From: Eledone cirrhosa
Lineage: Eukaryota
NCBI GenBank assembly: GCA_964016885.1
Contig: OZ024743.1
Location: 251,224,001-251,288,000 of the forward strand
Direction: 5' to 3'
DNA: 64,000 bases
In this document: piece after piece, positions 498 to 52,589 of the stretch
How the letters are laid out: the number at the start of each line of letters is the position of its first letter
How positions within the stretch are numbered: the stretch's first letter is position 1
Notes under the pieces: model-generated
Databases searched by the model: none
Seen by the model: the letters and a program-made list of their open reading frames with translations, nothing else
What the model was told of the DNA's origin: nothing
Translations under genes and position numbers: made by a program

Positions 498-636
498 TAC
501 ATGTAATATGAATGTATGTATAGTATACTTGGCAATATACCGTACGTTTAATTAAAAACAATTAGAAGACCATACACTATCAGTTTTAAAGTAGTGACTA
601 TGTCACTTACTTCTTTTCGGCAAAAGAAGGGAGAGA

Positions 637-678
637 AGCTGACAGTCTGTTTCACGCTGGTTGGTGTTCATCAGAGCC
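637..678 (-). ncRNA. Type I hammerhead ribozyme motif, predicted GUC cleavage
   Basis: Reverse complement ggct-CTGATGA-acaccaaccagcgt-GAAACAG-A-CTGTC-agct; stem I extended by ttttcggc..agggag / ctccct..gccgaaaa. Confidence 0.75.
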
Positions 679-947
679 ACTCACTCCCTGCTTCCGCCGA
701 AAATTATAGAAGCTTGATTCTTATAGAATTCCAGTAATAATCAGGAGATGATTATACAGAGCGATTGCCGGTCCAGCAAAAATTAGGTATTAGGATTGGT
801 GCTCTGAAATAACGATGTATACATGAATGTATGTATAGTATATTTGGCAATATACCGTATGTTTAATTAAAAACATTTAGAAGACCATATGCTATCGGTT
901 TTAAAGTAGTGACTATGTCGCTTCTTTTCGCTGAAAGAAGGGAAAGA

Positions 948-989
948 AGCTGACAGTCTGTTTCATGCTGGTTGGCGATCATCAGGTCA
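948..989 (-). ncRNA. Second, more degenerate HHR motif of the 315-bp repeat
   Basis: Reverse complement CTGATGA-tcgccaaccagcat-GAAACAGACTGTC; proximal stem I mutated. Confidence 0.55.
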
Positions 990-1030
990 CGCACTCCCCT
1001 GCTTCTGCCAAAAATTATAGAAGCTGGATT

Positions 1031-1066
<36 letters not shown>

Positions 1067-27920: not shown

Positions 27921-28107
27921 TTTTTCTTCCCCCCATCAGACTTGTGCGAAATTCCTTCCTTGCTCACATTTCAACCAGGTGTGATGGTCTTTTGTCTCTT
28001 GTTCACGATTTCACCGAGTTTATATTCATAGAGATCTGGAACTTGTCTATTTCTTCTCAATTTCCGTTGCTTAAACCTTTTTGTTTATTACCCTAACGTC
28101 CCCTTTA

Positions 28108-31100
28108 TCTAACGAGGTTGTAGAATTGCTTGAACGTAAGAAGGTTGATGTTTGCTGTATCCAAGAGACCAGGTGGAGGGGCGGGTCTGCTAGATTCATT
28201 GTGGGTAAAAAACGTTGCTATAAGCTTTTCTGGGTGGGAAATGACAATGGGATAGGTAGGGTAGGAATCATGTTAGCAGAAAAATGGGTGGATAAGATAA
28301 TAGATGTAAATAGAGTGAATGACAGAATAATTAAAATAAGACTTGTTCTAAACAGAACTACTGTGACAGTGATATCTGCATACGCGCCCCAATCCGGACT
28401 GCCTGGCGCTATAAAAGACAGATTCTATGAGACACTGATGCTCACTACCTCCCAAATAACCAACAGTGACTATATAATTATTGCTGGCAACCTAAATGGC
28501 CACGTTGGACAACATTGTGACGGCTATGACGGAATCCACGGAGGCTATGGGTTTGGTACTAGAAACGAGGAAGGCTCCAGAATCCTGGAATTCTGTGATG
28601 CAAATAACTTAATTATCTGTAACACTAACTTCAAAAAACGTGACAATCACTTGATCACCTATAGATCAGGGGAACATACCAGCCAGGTAGATTATATCCT
28701 TACCTCATGAAGAACGCACCTCCCAACAGAGACTGATAATTAGCGACCTCATAGTCAGGACGAGACGTACTAGACAGCAGAAGAGGACTATCCTCAGGAG
28801 AAAAATATGGAAGCTAAAGGATCCCACAGCCAGAAATAAATTTCAAAGCATATTACTTGATGCTTTCGACAGTAAGGAAGAGCAATTAGAGTCATACAAT
28901 GTAGAGGAACAGTGGGAATTCCTGAAAGCAAACCTGCTGATGGCGGCAGATGAAGTCTGTGGCTGGAGCAGGCCTGTAGGCAGGAGGAGAGTAACATGGT
29001 GGTGGAACAGTAAGGTGGAGGGGTCAATCAAGGCCAAAAAGCAGGCTTGGAAAGCATGGCGGGATGGGGGAAGTAGAGAAGACTATCAAGTGGCCAGGAG
29101 GGAAGCTAGGAGACAAGTGTACTTCGCAAGAAGGGAAGCAGAGGAAAGAAAGTTCAAGCATGTTCTACAACGCGATGACCAAAAACGTGAGGTGCTCAGG
29201 ATTGCTAGGCAATGTGTCAAGGAAAACCGTGATATTGTCGGGGAGAAGTGTGTACTTAACGATGATGGCGTACTTGCCATCACTGACGCTGATAAGAAGG
29301 TAGCTTGGAAGTCTCACTACGAAAGGCTACTAAATGAGGAGAATAAATGGGAGAAAGACAGTCTCCCCCACATCGACCCAATAGAGGGACTAGCAGTGTT
29401 AGTCGAAGGTAGTATAATAAGTAAGGCAATCAAAGATATGAAGACGGGTAAGGTGGCTGGGCCTTCGGAAATAGTTGCTGAGATGCTGAAAGCCTCTGGA
29501 ACGGTGGGACACACCATGGTCACCCGGATAGTAAACCAAGTCATACAGAATGGGGTTGTTCCGAAGGACTGGCGTAGCAGCATCATCGTTAACTGTTACA
29601 AGGGTAAAGGAGACGCCCTAGATAGGAGTAACTATAGAGGCATTAAATTAATCGACCAGGTCATGAAGGTCACGGGAAAAGTAATAGCGCAACTAATCAG
29701 AGAGAGAATTGATCTAGATGAAATGCAGTTCGGGTTTGTGTCAGGCAAAAGTACCACAGACGCACTCTTCATTGTACGACAACTACAGGAGAAGTACCTA
29801 GCTAAAAGTAAACGACTATATTTAGCTTTTGTCGACTTGGAGAAAGCCTTCGACAGATTCCCCCGTTCCATTATCTGGTGGGCTCTTAGAAAACTAGGTG
29901 TTGACGAATGGCTTGTGAGAGCTATACAAGCCATGTATAAAGAAACAGTCAGCAAGATTAGAATTAATAACGAATATAGTGAAGAGTTTAGCGTAAAAGT
30001 TGGTGTCCATCAGGGCTCTGTTCTCAGCCCCCTACTATTTATTATTGCCCTTCAGGCTATAACAGAGGAGTTCAAGACCGGCTGCCCATGGGAACTCCTA
30101 TACGCAGATGATCTAACGCTCATAGCTGAATCAATGGCCGAGCTAGAGAAGAAATTCCAAACATGGAAGCACGGCCTAGAATCAAAAGGCCTTAAAATTA
30201 ACCTGGCTAAGACTAAAGTTCTAGTTTGTAGGAAAGAAAATAAGGTGCCGGTCCCTTCCGGGAAATGGCCATGCTCGGTGTGTAGGAAAGGCGTAGGTAG
30301 AAACTCCATTTTATGTCCTAAATGCAAAGTATGAGTGCATAAAAGATGTAGTGGGATCACAGATAAGCTAACTAAGAACATAGATTTTACATGTGGCCGG
30401 TGCTCTGGTGCAATAAGTAGCAGCAAGTGCCCACAAAATACTAGCTCTTTCAATTGCGGAGAGGGTTCTATAGAAATAGTGGACAGCTTCCGTTACCTGG
30501 GTGACAAAATCAGCAGTGGGGGAGGGTGCTCTAAAAGTACAGTAGCTAGAGTCAGAACTGGATGGAAAAAGTTCAGAGAGCTTATACCACTATTAGCCGC
30601 TAAAGGGTTCTCCCTAAAAATGAAAGGCAGGTTGTACGATGCCTGCATACGGACAGCAATGTTGCATGGCAGTGAGACCTGGGCATTGTGTGAAGAGGAT
30701 ATACGCAGACTAGAGAGGAACGAAGCTTGCATGCTCCGCTGGATGTGTAATAGTAATATACGTGAACGGCAAAGCATAAACGAACTAAGGAAAAAATTAG
30801 AAATAAGAGGGATCAAATGTTGTTTACTCGAGAGAAGGCTACGTTGGTATGGTCATGTGATGCGCATGAAAGACGACAGCTGTATAACAAAGTGCAGGGC
30901 AATAAAGATAGACGGTAGCCACGGAGTAGGCAGACCCAGAAAAACCTGGGACGAGCTGATAAATTCCGACCTCACACACTTTCACCTCTCCAAGACAATG
31001 TCACTGGACCGAGACCTTTGGCAGTATTCAGTAATAGAGAAGACCCGCCTTACCTAAATACAAAGTAAAACCTACTACAGTCAGTAGGCATCTCTAACAA

Positions 31101-31522: not shown

Positions 31523-32328
<806 letters not shown>

Positions 32329-32366
32329 AATATTCTGTATGAAAATATTCTGTATGTAATATTCTG

Positions 32367-35300
32367 TCTAGCTGTGTCATTCTCGATAAAAGCACTGGAT
32401 ATGTAGTCCTGATGATTTCTAACAAGAATGAAACGCGTAGATTACTTCCCTTGCTTTTATCGAGAATCTAATTGTAATACGTGACGTATTCTATTCTATA
32501 GCGATTAGGTCTTCAAAATGTTTATTATAAACATACAGAATATTTTCGAATATTCTATGTCTATATTCACATATATATCGCTATTTCAGAGCATTTATTC
32601 CAATTTCTAATTTCTGCCGGACCGGCAACCGCTCTTTCAAACCAGTTCCTGTACACAGCTAAGTATTCTATAAGTCTCTAGCTGTGTCATTCTCGATAAA
32701 AGCACTGGATATGTAGTCCTGATGATTTCTAACAAGAATGAAACGCGTAGATTACTTCCCTTGCTTTTATCGAGAATCTAATTGTAATACGTGACGTATT
32801 CTATTCTATAGCGATTAGGTCTTCAAAATGTTTATTATAAACATACAGAATATTTTCGAATATTCTATGTCTATATTCACATATATATCGCTATTTCAGA
32901 GCATTTATTCCAATTTCTAATTTCTGCCGGACCGGCAACCGCTCTTTCAAACCAGTTCCTGTACACAGCTAAGTATTCTATAAGTCTCTAGCTGTGTCAT
33001 TCTCGATAAAAGCACTGGATATGTAGTCCTGATGATTTCTAACAAGAATGAAACGCGTAGATTACTTCCCTTGCTTTTATCGAGAATCTAATTGTAATAC
33101 GTGACGTATTCTATTCTATAGCGATTAGGTCTTCAAAATGTTTATTATAAACATACAGAATATTTTCGAATATTCTATGTCTATATTCACATATATATCG
33201 CTATTTCAGAGCATTTATTCCAATTTCTAATTTCTGCCGGACCGGCAACCGCTCTTTCAAACCAGTTCCTGTACACAGCTAAGTATTCTATAAGTCTCTA
33301 GCTGTGTCATTCTCGATAAAAGCACTGGATATGTAGTCCTGATGATTTCTAACAAGAATGAAACGCGTAGATTACTTCCCTTGCTTTTATCGAGAATCTA
33401 ATTGTAATACGTGACGTATTCTATTCTATAGCGATTAGGTCTTCAAAATGTTTATTATAAACATACAGAATATTTTCGAATATTCTATGTCTATATTCAC
33501 ATATATATCGCTATTTCAGAGCATTTATTCCAATTTCTAATTTCTGCCGGACCGGCAACCGCTCTTTCAAACCAGTTCCTGTACACAGCTAAGTATTCTA
33601 TAAGTCTCTAGCTGTGTCATTCTCGATAAAAGCACTGGATATGTAGTCCTGATGATTTCTAACAAGAATGAAACGCGTAGATTACTTCCCTTGCTTTTAT
33701 CGAGAATCTAATTGTAATACGTGACGTATTCTATTCTATAGCGATTAGGTCTTCAAAATGTTTATTATAAACATACAGAATATTTTCGAATATTCTATGT
33801 CTATATTCACATATATATCGCTATTTCAGAGCATTTATTCCAATTTCTAATTTCTGCCGGACCGGCAACCGCTCTTTCAAACCAGTTCCTGTACACAGCT
33901 AAGTATTCTATAAGTCTCTAGCTGTGTCATTCTCGATAAAAGCACTGGATATGTAGTCCTGATGATTTCTAACAAGAATGAAACGCGTAGATTACTTCCC
34001 TTGCTTTTATCGAGAATCTAATTGTAATACGTGACGTATTCTATTCTATAGCGATTAGGTCTTCAAAATGTTTATTATAAACATACAGAATATTTTCGAA
34101 TATTCTATGTCTATATTCACATATATATCGCTATTTCAGAGCATTTATTCCAATTTCTAATTTCTGCCGGACCGGCAACCGCTCTTTCAAACCAGTTCCT
34201 GTACACAGCTAAGTATTCTATAAGTCTCTAGCTGTGTCATTCTCGATAAAAGCACTGGATATGTAGTCCTGATGATTTCTAACAAGAATGAAACGCGTAG
34301 ATTACTTCCCTTGCTTTTATCGAGAATCTAATTGTAATACGTGACGTATTCTATTCTATAGCGATTAGGTCTTCAAAATGTTTATTATAAACATACAGAA
34401 TATTTTCGAATATTCTATGTCTATATTCACATATATATCGCTATTTCAGAGCATTTATTCCAATTTCTAATTTCTGCCGGACCGGCAACCGCTCTTTCAA
34501 ACCAGTTCCTGTACACAGCTAAGTATTCTATAAGTCTCTAGCTGTGTCATTCTCGATAAAAGCACTGGATATGTAGTCCTGATGATTTCTAACAAGAATG
34601 AAACGCGTAGATTACTTCCCTTGCTTTTATCGAGAATCTAATTGTAATACGTGACGTATTCTATTCTATAGCGATTAGGTCTTCAAAATGTTTATTATAA
34701 ACATACAGAATATTTTCGAATATTCTATGTCTATATTCACATATATATCGCTATTTCAGAGCATTTATTCCAATTTCTAATTTCTGCCGGACCGGCAACC
34801 GCTCTTTCAAACCAGTTCCTGTACACAGCTAAGTATTCTATAAGTCTCTAGCTGTGTCATTCTCGATAAAAGCACTGGATATGTAGTCCTGATGATTTCT
34901 AACAAGAATGAAACGCGTAGATTACTTCCCTTGCTTTTATCGAGAATCTAATTGTAATACGTGACGTATTCTATTCTATAGCGATTAGGTCTTCAAAATG
35001 TTTATTATAAACATACAGAATATTTTCGAATATTCTATGTCTATATTCACATATATATCGCTATTTCAGAGCATTTATTCCAATTTCTAATTTCTGCCGG
35101 ACCGGCAACCGCTCTTTCAAACCAGTTCCTGTACACAGCTAAGTATTCTATAAGTCTCTAGCTGTGTCATTCTCGATAAAAGCACTGGATATGTAGTCCT
35201 GATGATTTCTAACAAGAATGAAACGCGTAGATTACTTCCCTTGCTTTTATCGAGAATCTAATTGTAATACGTGACGTATTCTATTCTATAGCGATTAGGT

Positions 35301-36944
35301 CTTCAAAATGTTTATTATAAACATACAGAATATTTTCGAATATTCTATGTCTATATTCACATATATATCGCTATTTCAGAGCATTTATTCCAATTTCTAA
35401 TTTCTGCCGGACCGGCAACCGCTCTTTCAAACCAGTTCCTGTACACAGCTAAGTATTCTATAAGTCTCTAGCTGTGTCATTCTCGATAAAAGCACTGGAT
35501 ATGTAGTCCTGATGATTTCTAACAAGAATGAAACGCGTAGATTACTTCCCTTGCTTTTATCGAGAATCTAATTGTAATACGTGACGTATTCTATTCTATA
35601 GCGATTAGGTCTTCAAAATGTTTATTATAAACATACAGAATATTTTCGAATATTCTATGTCTATATTCACATATATATCGCTATTTCAGAGCATTTATTC
35701 CAATTTCTAATTTCTGCCGGACCGGCAACCGCTCTTTCAAACCAGTTCCTGTACACAGCTAAGTATTCTATAAGTCTCTAGCTGTGTCATTCTCGATAAA
35801 AGCACTGGATATGTAGTCCTGATGATTTCTAACAAGAATGAAACGCGTAGATTACTTCCCTTGCTTTTATCGAGAATCTAATTGTAATACGTGACGTATT
35901 CTATTCTATAGCGATTAGGTCTTCAAAATGTTTATTATAAACATACAGAATATTTTCGAATATTCTATGTCTATATTCACATATATATCGCTATTTCAGA
36001 GCATTTATTCCAATTTCTAATTTCTGCCGGACCGGCAACCGCTCTTTCAAACCAGTTCCTGTACACAGCTAAGTATTCTATAAGTCTCTAGCTGTGTCAT
36101 TCTCGATAAAAGCACTGGATATGTAGTCCTGATGATTTCTAACAAGAATGAAACGCGTAGATTACTTCCCTTGCTTTTATCGAGAATCTAATTGTAATAC
36201 GTGACGTATTCTATTCTATAGCGATTAGGTCTTCAAAATGTTTATTATAAACATACAGAATATTTTCGAATATTCTATGTCTATATTCACATATATATCG
36301 CTATTTCAGAGCATTTATTCCAATTTCTAATTTCTGCCGGACCGGCAACCGCTCTTTCAAACCAGTTCCTGTACACAGCTAAGTATTCTATAAGTCTCTA
36401 GCTGTGTCATTCTCGATAAAAGCACTGGATATGTAGTCCTGATGATTTCTAACAAGAATGAAACGCGTAGATTACTTCCCTTGCTTTTATCGAGAATCTA
36501 ATTGTAATACGTGACGTATTCTATTCTATAGCGATTAGGTCTTCAAAATGTTTATTATAAACATACAGAATATTTTCGAATATTCTATGTCTATATTCAC
36601 ATATATATCGCTATTTCAGAGCATTTATTCCAATTTCTAATTGCTGCCGGACCGGCAACCGCTCTTTCAAACCAGTTCCTGTACACAGCTAAGTATTCTA
36701 TAAGTCTCTAGCTGTGTCATTCTCGATAAAAGCACTGGATATGTAGTCCTGATGATTTCTAACAAGAATGAAACGCGTAGATTACTTCCCTTGCTTTTAT
36801 CGAGAATCTAATTGTAATACGTGACGTATTCTATTCTATAGCGATTAGGTCTTCAAAATGTTTATTATAAACATACAGAATATTTTCGAATATTCTATGT
36901 CTATATTCACATATATATCGCTATTTCAGAGCATTTATTCCAAT
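32367..36944 (+). mobile_element. 310-bp tandem array (~14.8 units), one type I HHR per unit: non-LTR retrozyme-like multimer
   Basis: Exact 310-bp period; the only variant noticed is T>G at 36643; ends in (TA)n; HHR at 32403+310n for n=0-14. Confidence 0.9.
32403..32445 (+). ncRNA. Type I hammerhead ribozyme (first of 15 copies), predicted cleavage after GUA at 32439
   Basis: gtagtc-CTGATGA-t-ttct-aaca-agaa-t-GAAAC-GC-GTA-gattac; palindromic stem III ACGCGT; flanked by a perfect 16-bp IR attctcgataaaagca/tgcttttatcgagaat. Confidence 0.85.
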
Positions 36945-37253
36945 ATATATATATATATATATATAAAACAAATAACGAAACGAAATTAAATTTCGTTTCG
37001 CTTTTAACTCACTTTTGTATGACTGACGCTTAAACAATTAAGTTAAAGTGTACATCTACATATGTATACGGAAGTATTAGTATGCATATAAATACACACA
37101 TGTATACATATGTACATGTACTCAGCTTTTCACTAGACACTTTACAGTGAGTGTCAGCTAGTCTGTATGTAACCACACAGGCGGACCGGGTTTTAGAGTC
37201 ATACGAGTTTTCAAGGAAACACATTTCCTCTATTCTCCAGAGGGCCAGACAGG

Positions 37254-37298
37254 AATATTGGACTAGTTTCGATGTTATTACATCTCATCAGCAATATT
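37254..37298 (-). ncRNA. Type I hammerhead ribozyme, GUC cleavage
   Basis: Reverse complement aatattg-CTGATGA-gatgt-aata-acatc-GAAAC-TA-GTC-caatatt. Confidence 0.9.
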
Positions 37299-37797
37299 TA
37301 CCCATCTTCCGGCTTCTCTGGAGAATTGTAAAAGCACATATCGTTATATGCTTTTTCTATGAAAATTAGTAGTGGGTAGACTAATTTGCATAGAACGTGA
37401 GTCATTGTACGCACCGGTTCAGCGGAAACGATAAAAACAAATAACGAAACGAAATTAAATTTCGTTTCGCTTCTAACTCACTTTTGTATGACTGACGCTT
37501 AAACAATTAAGTTAAAGTGTACATCTACATATGTATACGGAAGTATTAGTATGCATATAAATACACACATGTATACATATGTACATGTACTCAGCTTTTC
37601 ACTAGACACTTTACAGTGAGTGTCAGCTAGTCTGTATGTAACCACACAGGCGGACCGGGTTTTAGAGTCATACGAGTTTTCAAGGAAACAATGACTCACG
37701 TTCTATGCAAATTAGTCTACCCACTACTAATTTTTATAGAAAAAGCATATAACGATATGTGCTTTTACAATTCTCCAGAGAAGCCGGAAGATGGGTA

Positions 37798-37842
37798 AAT
37801 ATTGCTGATGAGATGTAATAACATCGAAACTAGTCCAAAATT
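37798..37842 (+). ncRNA. Type I hammerhead ribozyme (one stem I mismatch)
   Basis: aatattg-CTGATGA-gatgtaataacatc-GAAACTAGTC-caaaatt. Confidence 0.85.
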
Positions 37843-38258
37843 CCTGTCTGGCCCTCTGGAGAATAGAGGAAATGTGTTTCCTTGAAAACTCGTATGACTC
37901 TAAAACCTGGTCCGCCTGTGTGGTTACATACAGACTAGCTGACACTCACTGTAAAGTGTCTAGTGAAAAGCTGAGTACATGTATATATGTGTGTATTTAT
38001 ATGCATACTAATACTTCCGTATACATATGTAGATGTACACTTTAACTTAATTGTTTAAGCGTCAGTCATACAAAAGTGAGTTAGAAGCGAAATGAAATTT
38101 AATTTCGTTTCGTTATTTGTTTTTATCGTTTCCGCTGAACCGGTGCGTACAATGACTCACGTTCTATGCAAATTAGTCTACCCACTACTAATTTTCATAG
38201 AAAAAGCATATAACGATATGTGCTTTTACAATTCTCCAGAGAAGCCGGAAGATGGGTA

Positions 38259-38303
38259 AATATTGCTGATGAGATGTAATAACATCGAAACTAGTCCAAT
38301 ATT
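38259..38303 (+). ncRNA. Type I hammerhead ribozyme with canonical core, cleavage after GUC at 38296
   Basis: 7-bp stem I, 5-bp stem II with G-C closing pair, palindromic stem III ACTAGT; distal ttctccagag/ctctggagaa extends stem I. Confidence 0.9.
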
Positions 38304-38515
38304 CCTGTCTGGCCCTCTGGAGAATAGAGGAAATGTGTTTCCTTGAAAACTCGTATGACTCTAAAACCCGGTCCGCCTGTGTGGTTACATACAGACTAGC
38401 TGACACTCACTGTAAAGTGTCTAGTGAAAAGCTGAGTACATGTACATATGTATACATGTGTGTATTTATATGCATACTAATACTTCCGTATACATATGTA
38501 GATGTACACTTTAAC

Positions 38516-38570
<55 letters not shown>

Positions 38571-49426: not shown

Positions 49427-49477
49427 AGCTTCCTGAAGATTTCATCTGAATGAAACGGTACTAGTCTTGTAGAAGCT
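49427..49477 (+). ncRNA. Type I HHR motif, predicted GUA cleavage
   Basis: agcttc-CTGAAGA-t-ttc-atct-gaa-t-GAAAC-ggtactagtctt-GTA-gaagct; perfect 6-bp stem I; near-palindromic stem III. Confidence 0.7.
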
Positions 49478-49695
49478 CCTTCTATAAAATAAAAAATAAA
49501 AATATATATATATATATGTATGTGTGTATATATATATATATATTTATATATATATGTGTATGTATATATACATATATATGTATATATATATATGTATGTG
49601 TGAATGTATATATATATATATATGTATGTGTGTATGTATATATACAAATATATGTATATATATATATATGTATGTGTGAATGTATATATATATAT

Positions 49696-52589
49696 GCTCC
49701 AGAATCCTGGAATTCTGTGATGCAAATAACCTAACTATCTGTAACACTAACTTCAAAAAACGTGACAATCACCTGATCACCTATAGATCCGGGGAACACA
49801 CAAGCCAGGTAGATTATATCCTTACCAGAAGACGTGACAGAGTGTCTGTTGTAAACACTAAATCCCTCCCCCATGAAGAATGCACCTCCCAACATAGACT
49901 GATAATTAGCGACCTCATAGTCAGGTCGAGACGTACTCGACAGCAGAAGAGGACTATCCTCAGGAGAAAAATATGGAAGCTAAAGGACCCCACAGCCAAA
50001 AATAAATTTCAAAACATATTACTTGATGCTTTCGACAGTAAGGAAGAACACTTAGAGTCGGACAATATAGAGGGACAGTGGGAATTTCTGAAAGCAAACC
50101 TGCTGTTGGCCACAGACGAAGTCTGTGGCTGGAGCAGGCCTGTAGGCAGGAGGAGAGTAACATGGTGGTGGAACAGTAAGGTGGAGGAGTCAATTAAGGC
50201 CAAAAAGCAGGCTTGGAAAGTATGGCGGGATGGGGGAAGTAGAGTAGACTATCAAGTGGCCAGGAGGGAAGCTAGGAGAGAAGTGTACTTAGCAAGAAGG
50301 GAAGCTGAGGAAAGAAAGTTCAAGCATGTCCTACAACGCGATGACCAAAAACGTGAGGTGTTCAGGATTGCTAGGCAATGCGTCAAGGAAAACCGTGATA
50401 TTGTCGGGGAGAAGTGTGTACTTAACGATGATGGCATACTTGCCATCACCGACACTGATAAGAAGGCAGCTTGGAAGTGTCACTATGAAAGGCTACTAAA
50501 TGAGGAGAATAAATGGGAGAAAGACAGTCTCCCCCATGTCGACCCAATAGAGGGACCAGCAGTGTTAGTCGAGGGGAGTATAATAAGTAAGGCAATCAAG
50601 GATATGAAGACAGGTAAGGCGGCTGGGCCTTCGGAAATAGTTGCTGAGATGCTGAAGGCATCTGGCACGGTGGGACACACCATGGTCACCCGCATAGTTA
50701 ACCAAGTCGTACAGAATGGGGCTGTTCCGAAGGACTGGCATAGCAGCATCATCGTTAACTGTTATAAGGGTAAAGGAGACGCCCTAGATAGGAGTAACTA
50801 TAGAGGCATTAAATTAATCGACCAGGTCATGAAGGTCACAGAAAAAGTAATAGCGCAACTAATCAGAGAGAGAATTGACCTAGATGAAATGCAGTTCGGG
50901 TTTGTGTCAGGCAAAAGTACCACAGACGCTCTTTTCATAGTACGACAACTACAGGAGAAGTACCTAGCTAAAGGTAAACCCCTCTACTTAGCTTTTGTCG
51001 ACTTGGAGAAAGCCTTCGACAGAGTCCCCCGCTCCATTATCTGGTGGGCTCTTAGAAAACTAGGCGTTGACGAATGGCTTGTGAGGGCTATACAAGCCAT
51101 GTATAAAGAAACAGTCAGCAAGGTTAGAATTAACAACGAATATAGTGAAGAGTTTAGCGTAAAAGTTGGCGTCCATCAGGGCTCTGTTCTCAGCCCCCTA
51201 CTATTTATTATTGCCCTTCAGGCTATAACAGAGGAGTTCAAGACAGGCTGCCCATGGGAACTCCTATACGCAGACGACCTGACACTCATAGCGGAATCAA
51301 TGGCCGAGCTAGAGAAGAAATTCCAAACATGGAAGCACGGCCTAGAGTCAAAAGGACTTAAAATTAACCTGGCTAAGACCAAAGTTCTAGTTTGTAGGAA
51401 AGAAAACAAGGCGGCGGTCCCTTCTGGGAAATGGTCGTGCTCGGTGTGTAGGAAAGGCGTAGGTAGAAACTCCATTTTGTGTCCTAAATGCAAAGTATGG
51501 GTGCATAAAAGATGTGGGATCACAGGTAAGCTAACTAAGAACATAGATTTTACATGTGGCCGGTGTTCTGGTGCAATAAGTAGCAGCAAGTGCCCACACA
51601 ATACTAGCTCTTTCAATTGCGCAGAGGGTTCTATAGAAATAGTGGACAGCTTCCGTTACCTGGGCGATAAAATCAGCAGTGGGGGAGGGTGCTCTGAAAG
51701 TACTGTAGCTAGAGTCAGAACTGGTTGGAAAAAGTTCAGAGAGCTTATACCACTATTAGCTGCTAAAGGGTTCTCCCTAAAAATGAAAGGCAGGTTGTAC
51801 GATGCCTGCATACGAACAGCAATGTTGCATGGCAGTGAGACCTGGGCATTGTGTGCAGAGGATATACGCAGACTAGAGAGGAACGAAGCTTGCATGCTCC
51901 GCTGGATGTGTAACAGTAATATACGTGAACGGCAAAGCATAAACGAACTAAGGAAAAAATTAGAGATAAGAGGGATCAGATGTTGTTTACTCGAGAGAAG
52001 GCTACGTTGGTATGGACACGTGATGCGCATGAAAGTCGATAGCTGTATAACAAAGTGCAGGGCAATAAAGATAGACGGTAGCCACGGAATAGGCAGACCT
52101 AGAAAAACCTGGGACGAGCTGATAAACTCCGACCTCACACACTTACACCTCTCCAAGACAATGTCACTGGACCGAGACCTTTGGCGGTACTCAGTAACAG
52201 AGAAGACCCGCCTTGCCAGTAGGCATCTCTAACAAAATACACCCCGTCCCACCACCACCACCCCCACCCCATCCACACCACCCCGTCCTATGTAAAGTTA
52301 TGTTGGTGCCGCGCCATCCGGGCCGAAACAAATGAGATCGTGTAGGTGTCACGACAAAAAAACACACAGTCCACGCTGTAATGTGGCCGTGTAGGCAACA
52401 CGGTAAAAACCTCCCAGACCCACACTGTAAATGTGGTTGGTGTTAGGAAGGGCATCCAACTGTAGAAAACCTGCCAGACAGTCCTATGCGAGCAAGACAA
52501 TCACTCTTGCCTCAAGTGGGACTACCCCCGTCCAAACCCATGCAAGCGTGGAACACGGACGTTAAACGTTGATGATGATGATGATGATG
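49696..52589 (+). mobile_element. RTE-clade LINE family A, copy 2: 5'-truncated, in (TA)n, (GAT)n tail
   Basis: Homology to copy 1 begins at gctccagaatcc; (TA)-rich microsatellite on both sides. Confidence 0.95.
49698..52232 (+). CDS. Open 5'-truncated RTE ORF: APE C-terminus, RT and embedded PHD-like finger (no native start)
   Basis: Uninterrupted frame with [49 protein letters not shown]. Confidence 0.85.

Follow-up and report, generated by a model that had tools for sequence, protein, structure and literature searches.

The closest described relatives of the repeats considered here are the non-LTR (long terminal repeat) retrozymes of metazoans, reported by Cervera and de la Pena (2020; PMC7229834) and by Li, Clavereau and Pollet (bioRxiv 10.64898/2026.07.22.740005). 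In the accessible text of these accounts they are non-coding tandem units of ~300 nt and low GC, each with one type I hammerhead ribozyme and no LTR, primer-binding site or polypurine tract, present in thousands of copies alongside Penelope-like elements (PLEs) in the same genome; mobilisation by PLEs and circle-templated synthesis of tandem cDNA have both been proposed for them already. Here we consider two such units, families A and B, from a 64,000-nucleotide stretch of Eledone cirrhosa DNA (contig OZ024743.1, positions 251,224,001 to 251,288,000, forward strand; hereafter ‘the window’), the host genome being 3.0 Gb in size and rich in (TA)n. They are two branches of one non-coding hammerhead retrozyme superfamily, and the ~148-nt region that they share is, in our judgement, probably a folded RNA domain where a Penelope-like reverse transcriptase (RT)/endonuclease binds and starts copying. 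The class of element and its proposed dependence on PLEs are already known; what is added is a covarying domain that brackets two insertion ends in at least five families.

For PLEs themselves, the accessible parts of three papers supply the relevant comparisons. Endonuclease-bearing (EN+) PLEs (Craig et al. 2021, PMC8557442) have in common with our elements 5′ truncation, partial tandems, an adjacent inverted copy, (TA)n targets and a 30–40-bp ‘tail’, often at one end only; unlike them, families A and B have no open reading frame (ORF), and the start region lies inside a covarying multi-helix domain. With the purified anole PLE of Frangieh et al. (2024, PMC11167929), two internal RT start sites mark off the 30–40-bp tail, a likeness to the two internal sites that would delimit the tail here; extension occurs on both target strands, a dimeric protein is predicted and RNA downstream of the starts is required, whilst the only structure described in that text is an AC-rich stem loop within the ORF. 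PLE hammerheads (Cervera and de la Pena 2014, PMC4209133) resemble ours in their extreme within-genome variability with compensatory changes, a U3-A8 variant, a palindromic helix III and proposed dimeric cleavage; in contrast to that account, stem III comprises between 6 and 16 self-complementary nucleotides in different families here, and variability can be measured against a slower-changing neighbouring domain. In the literature searched, little of it subscription-only, no conserved structure at the start sites of retrozymes or PLEs is described; nor do the accessible parts of the metazoan retrozyme accounts map insertion ends, describe two-armed arrays with long and short ends, or name an RT-recognition structure.

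Within the window (position 1 being its first letter) the two families are found as follows:

508–1034, minus strand: family A retrozyme insertion of ~1.7 units, 5′-truncated beside (TA)n, its 3′ end at start site 1 (see below)
31971–32328, minus strand: short arm of the family B locus, ~1.15 units, ending at site 1 inside a (TA)54 tract (31873–31980)
32312–32367, no strand assigned: inter-arm junction of the family B locus, with a local 14-bp repeat built of element sequence
32367–36944, plus strand: long arm of the family B locus, 14.8 units of 310 bp with 15 hammerheads, ending at site 2 in (TA)n

As in metazoan non-LTR retrozymes, the hammerheads recur once per unit, family A having two 311 nt apart (cores at 668–674 and 979–985, minus strand) and family B fifteen in its 310-bp array, and both families are dispersed at high copy number. 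Measured from cleavage site to cleavage site the monomers are 311 nt (A) and 310 nt (B); the ~315 bp that an earlier note gave for A holds for the first repeat, whereas the second unit carries a 4-nt deletion. No ORF of 150 amino acids (aa) or more lies over either locus, GC is ~0.33, and the long arm of B is strikingly uniform, with 13 of its 14 full monomers identical and 99% identity over the array. The two copies of a shared block that the note had located at ~758 and ~32224 are indeed there, at 76% identity over 155 nt (E 5e-25, searching within the window), and the orientation of block to ribozyme is, as claimed, identical in the two families; the copy at 32224 belongs to the short inverted arm, the 14.8-unit array lying on the opposite strand. 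Saying this, A/B homology is not confined to the block but spans the full monomer: global alignment gives 67% identity and a score of 187 (100 shuffles: mean −45, best −5), with ~75% identity at monomer positions 60–210 and ~55–65% in the ribozyme region.

Genome-wide, the block pattern has 16,587 matches (reversed control, 0), its A-type form 1,087, and an A-type hammerhead pattern that makes no use of the block 3,107 (controls, 0). The fetched loci yielded 116 full units (104 A-type, 12 B; 48 of them via a hammerhead-anchored sample), which fall into 12 clusters; a single-copy cluster was excluded from the counts, leaving 11 subfamily majority lines. Many of these units were chosen by the block motif; those subfamilies found solely by the hammerhead pattern keep the block with one change. 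Three more distant families, K, M and N, which came to light through a profile search of PLE-flanking DNA, are likewise non-coding tandem repeats: K has 759 pattern matches, units of ~340 nt and a C3-G8 hammerhead, and M has 42 matches among the 40 of 318 candidates that were scored, with a U3-A8 hammerhead. Outside the ~148-nt region the similarity of A and B to K and M is not above that of shuffles. One old A-type array (L286), with many diverged tandem units over ~6 kb, contrasts with the homogeneous young arrays of B.

Rather than standing alone as a motif, the block makes up the 3′ half of a predicted RNA domain of ~148 nt common to A, B, K, M and N. Following the RNA 5′ to 3′, and hence descending in window coordinates, its parts are:

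750–897, minus strand: the whole predicted start-site domain, 148 nt (Pa, H2, H1, Pb, Pc), holding the block
859–895, minus strand: 5′ arm of Pa (891–895), a conserved single-stranded motif and hairpin H2 (859–876); the best-conserved sequence across four families (71–88%)
837–856, minus strand: hairpin H1, 7–8 bp with a 4-nt loop; double changes in 6 of 8 pairs
815–829, minus strand: putative start site 1, where short 3′ ends fall, bordering an AU-rich run; this insertion itself stops at the homologous position, 509
801–813, minus strand: 3′ arm of Pa (809–813) and 5′ arm of Pb (801–805); left half of the block
786–794, minus strand: putative start site 2, where the long 3′ ends that bear the tail fall, within a linker predicted to be unpaired
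758–778, minus strand: hairpin Pc with a 3-nt loop (766–778) and 3′ arm of Pb (758–762); right half of the block
32496–32643, plus strand: first full copy of the domain in family B

Folds of single copies share this two-part architecture (z = −1.9 for A, −3.0 for B, −2.9 for K and −3.2 for M), in which Pa is predicted to close a loop holding H2 and H1, after which Pb encloses the unpaired linker and Pc. The start region lies 130–165 nt past the cleavage site; both end sites fall in predicted unpaired parts of the domain, with Pc and the 3′ arm of Pb directly 3′ of site 2.

It is the position of insertion ends that ties this region to reverse transcription. Counting from the first T of the block’s TTTCAGAG, the 80 A-type ends scored lie at −8 to −5 (33; site 1), −20 to −9 (14), further upstream (3) or +16 to +27 (30; site 2), bearing in mind that alignments overrun a few bases into the TA tract, such that the true site 1 junction is ~8 nt further 5′. 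Of 37 B ends, 18 lie at site 1, 18 at site 2 and 1 elsewhere. (TA)3 follows the end in 52/80 A-type and 33/37 B cases, and families K and M have two end classes just as A and B do. Sites 1 and 2 are about 30–35 nt apart, inside the predicted domain and beside (TA)n.

Of 42 two-armed loci, 35 combine one long and one short end (B 16/16, A 14/19, K 4/6, M 1/1); the others comprise four with a long and an eroded short end, two with a short and an intermediate end and one with two short ends, and none has two long ends. Two 3′ ends, an inverted and 5′-truncated partner arm and a (TA)n target together reproduce the signature of PLE insertion. The haplotypes of the two arms are identical at all eight B loci with full monomers on both, private variants span both arms in three more loci, and 106 of 114 B units match the majority of their arm; between B loci, only 7/136 pairs are identical, the median is 4 differences and 17 loci hold 13 haplotypes. 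Because the arms agree with each other whilst loci differ, one RNA variant templated all units of both arms, which is what would be expected of a circle, although a homogeneous uncut multimer also fits. It could instead be argued that site 2 is the only RT start, the second arm arising when the first cDNA snaps back and is copied, and joining the far end of the target at site 1 through TA microhomology, with the domain still binding RT. The AU-rich run found at site 1 in all families agrees with this, as does the tendency of the tail-bearing arm to be the longer one at B loci, and identical arms are equally expected. We consider it unlikely, given that one locus (L157) has 8 hammerheads on its short-ended arm and 1 on its long-ended arm, that single-armed copies such as that at 508–1034 of the window end at site 1, and that, in the accessible text of PMC11167929, two start sites were observed in vitro.

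From what is observed—homology, copy numbers, covariation, ends, TA targets, arm asymmetry and one haplotype per insertion—we infer folding in vivo, cleavage, circles, protein binding and a partner along the following lines. Tandem DNA would be transcribed, and its type I hammerheads, with their self-complementary stem III, would cut as dimers to release ~310-nt monomers, which would then be circularised. A PLE protein acting in trans would bind the domain and cleave a (TA)n tract on both strands; both DNA ends would be extended on one circle, the first starting at site 1 and the other at site 2, and the two cDNAs, joined at their 5′ ends, would give a two-armed array. The ribozyme module would need only its pairing and core, and so drift by compensatory change, whereas having to fit a protein as well would slow change in the start-site domain. 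More tentatively, and as something we can see as possible rather than probable, the domain may be a dedicated RT-docking RNA whose two unpaired start sites, 30–40 nt apart, let both subunits of one RT/endonuclease dimer prime from the two ends of a (TA)n break on one circle, with rolling-circle copying. If so, it would be the first template-recognition structure to be defined for Penelope-like enzymes, would explain both the PLE ‘tail’ and the strict asymmetry of long and short arms, and would have a counterpart in the structured template RNAs of telomerase, a related enzyme. The questions addressed are how a retrotransposon enzyme recognises non-coding retrozymes and how the positions of internal RT starts in PLEs are fixed; the superfamily amounts to a mutational scan made by nature, in which one fold is kept around the same two end points by at least five divergent families, and names the helices and positions to mutate in the existing in vitro PLE assay.

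The predicted helices covary. RNAalifold, run on a sequence-only MAFFT alignment of 29 copies from four families, predicts H2 and H1; pairing over Pa, H2 and H1 together reaches 93.5%, and double-change cells number 43 (shuffles 14.5; 0/500), as compared with 25–50% pairing in slid controls. With K left out, pairing over all five helices is 90.6% and double-change cells number 24 (0/500; pair count 42/500). Pc covaries too across A/B, K and M, and family N adds another variant of Pb.

A number of results nonetheless weigh against this interpretation. As regards the fold, the best structure for B lacks H2, Pa shows no double change, and H2 covaries in one pair of six; two of the five measures for Pa, H2 and H1 (the counts of pairs and of pair types) are not above shuffles (112 and 196 of 500), and the shuffles used for all five ignore relatedness. 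Pb and Pc are only 67.6% paired on the unadjusted alignment because K is out of register there, and the contrast between Pb in A/B (AU,GC,AU,GC,CG), in M (AU,GC,AU,GC,UA,UA,AU; motif-anchored) and in K (UA,GC,AU,AU,GC,CG,UA) uses a register for K that was set by hand. When a covariance model is trained on A, B and M but not on K, it recovers K at 16 loci through 32 hits, the best at E 7e-11, with all 11 Pb/Pc positions paired in the best hit and all but one in the second, though an alignment of K obtained in this way is fitted to that model; at depth, the covariation rests on four or five lineages. As regards the ends, site 1, lying at an AU-rich run, could be a TA-microhomology joint, and in a shorter arm-to-arm comparison 4/17 loci differ (by 1, 7, 15 and 50 differences), probably because these arms are shorter than the compared segment. 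As regards the mechanism, hammerhead cleavage is dispensable for PLE insertion in vitro (PMC11167929) and 8/9 Xenopus retrozyme dimers were uncleaved (bioRxiv 10.64898/2026.07.22.740005), on the accessible text of both reports. Finally, the domain was absent from 70 GIY-YIG loci searched with BLAST, nhmmer and the covariance model, and three sampled Neptune families carry a different tail motif.

Those 70 loci come from at least 10,595 GIY-YIG candidates in the genome, 150 of which were scored. The first 50 form 7 clusters, and 20 more added one divergent Penelope/Poseidon-like copy; most are PLEs of the Neptune type, which have two ends, TA targets and ORFs that look intact, so suitable machinery exists in the genome, and the PLE hammerheads in these loci are U3-A8 or C3-G8 with a palindromic stem III. 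The search of the block against PLE or LINE (long interspersed element) termini that the earlier note had suggested gave no match in this sample, whilst 24/57 retrozyme families in Xenopus have a matching pLTR (pseudo-LTR), according to the accessible part of that report (bioRxiv 10.64898/2026.07.22.740005). Two further motif searches for a partner yielded just more non-coding families, and neither the A nor the B locus carries the RT plus GIY-YIG ORF of an autonomous PLE. Junction chimeras were found at 5/206 retrozyme loci, within 25 nt of PLE sequence from four different PLE families. One of these regions, L224:1331–1900, is a two-armed insertion between TA tracts that joins a Neptune PLE 3′ end to an A-type retrozyme arm through 3 nt of microhomology; suggestive rather than decisive, it is the best single hint to the partner. 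In three Neptune families (L064, L091 and L094) the motif ACYCGTGT lies between two 3′ ends, with tails of ~38, 66 and 55 nt, and is a candidate recognition motif of those PLEs.

The earlier note had offered RT recognition and promoter activity as roles for the block. The first gains indirect support from where copies end, and is the one we favour; the second is not supported, because K, M and N lose the sequence of the block and keep its helices. In its strongest form, the promoter alternative takes the conserved region to be an internal DNA promoter or transcription-factor site driving transcription of the tandem array, ends falling there only because PLE-derived ends adjoin the promoter. 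The arms of H2 resemble what we take to be forkhead sites, the H2 segment is 71–88% identical across four families and 5/6 of its pairs never change on both sides; PLE pLTRs, moreover, have been reported with an internal promoter (PMC8557442, accessible text). We judge it distinctly unlikely all the same: the right half of the block falls to 26–54% identity in K and M (K being out of register there) with pairing kept, both H2 arms change together in several A subfamilies (6/29 rows), and no Pol III B box occurs on either strand of A, B, C, K or M. The note’s own refuting condition, a block no better conserved than the rest of the unit, has a mixed outcome: the block is the better conserved with B included (17/60 variable columns versus 82/155 for other non-ribozyme sequence; p=0.001) and not so among A-type subfamilies alone (12/60 versus 41/155; p=0.38); at the deepest level the best-kept sequence is another segment, at ~859–890 of the window, about 60–100 nt from the block.

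Turning to the ribozyme, its modules in the two family A units are laid out as follows:

606–712, minus strand: ribozyme module of unit 1 (fold z −4.1), comprising the arms of the long flanking stem (691–703 and 614–626), stem I, core CUGAUGA (668–674) and stem II
641–653, minus strand: GAAA plus self-complementary stem III of unit 1, with predicted cleavage after 641
925–1014, minus strand: ribozyme module of unit 2, core at 979–985, GAAA plus stem III at 952–964

No hammerhead in the window reaches the gathering thresholds of Rfam; the modules nevertheless show the hallmarks of type I hammerheads, namely a CUGANGA core, GAAA and UH, stems I–III and a covarying C3-G8 pair. That the stems differ between A and B yet still pair, as the earlier note maintained, is borne out by folding, both modules beating shuffles (z = −4.1 for A, −5.5 for B). 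Across the 11 subfamilies the module is the most variable part of the unit, at 75/101 variable columns. Six of the majority lines have C-G at position 3-8 and five have U-A, pairs in stems I, II and III interchange among C-G, U-A, G-C and A-U, and stem III is self-complementary throughout (6–13 nt; in the more distant family M, 16 nt), which fits dimeric cleavage.

Taking ribozyme and domain helices together, and with subfamily-versus-copy counts serving in place of branch-wise substitution counts, alternative pair types are canonical in 21/27 cases at subfamily level (14 by double change) as against 149/308 changes at copy level (Fisher p=0.004). The flanking arms pair best with their own partners (mean −32.3 kcal/mol, versus −22.9 when swapped; cognate best in its row for 8/11), and the core label, C3-G8 or U3-A8, changes 4 times on a tree of non-ribozyme columns (43 copies), at least 2 of these being forced by well-supported branches. 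The compensatory evolution proposed in the note is upheld by all three measures; it is an expected phenomenon, published before for Penelope-type hammerheads. A further alternative holds that what maintains the helices is a need for circular RNA to be stable, to be ligated or to evade decay, or else homogenisation through template switching at inverted repeats, RT recognition playing no part. Inverted repeats can be corrected without selection, and predictions for retrozyme circles in general show a high degree of pairing (PMC7229834, accessible text). This seems to us very unlikely, in that C3-G8/U3-A8 is a tertiary pair and not a hairpin arm, the sole region common to all families is the one holding both ends, and the long flanking stem, the strongest helix, is the least conserved in sequence.

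Some variation within families has a direction. B haplotypes vary at monomer positions 2, 20, 259, 276, 295 and 310; on the RNA strand, template-level variants in the B ribozyme module include A>G at 6/27 A versus T>C at 0/31, and the corresponding figures for the long stem of A-type copies are 5.6% versus 2.4%. A-to-I editing may be a driver of rapid stem evolution, but tolerance of G-U wobble predicts the same A>G excess.

A tRNA-derived SINE (short interspersed element) origin was rejected: no unit has a B box, A and B have no A box, and neither locus has an Rfam tRNA hit. A 10–12-nt match of the block to a high-copy tRNA-derived SINE (L191:1430–1660) is probably chance, because K, M and N lack it. 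A metagenome scan returned one match, which has no hammerhead with it and lies in a coding region that looks bacterial; this too was judged chance. Unit B (window 32367–32986) is present at 76–100% of sampled words in 20 runs from 16 studies under 17 organism codes, none recorded as RNA. In four of these runs it forms one clean contig each (≥99% alike, depth 15–48); the 310-nt wrap-around joint appears in 2/4, in contigs that would look alike for a circle and for tandem DNA. These records could be accounted for by circular RNA, by interspecies sharing or by trace carry-over, the repeat being very high-copy.

Elsewhere in the window, a third hammerhead element (36967–38521; two-armed, 461-nt monomer) shares its TA tract with the end of the B array and is unrelated to A/B by BLAST and covariance model. 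Hammerhead-like motifs of other families occur at 308–362 and 49433–49470, with related motifs near PLE loci. The RT ORFs of the window are pieces of APE-type LINEs, with (RTE-like) copies at 28075–31057 and 49680–52232, the second retaining an 850-aa open frame.
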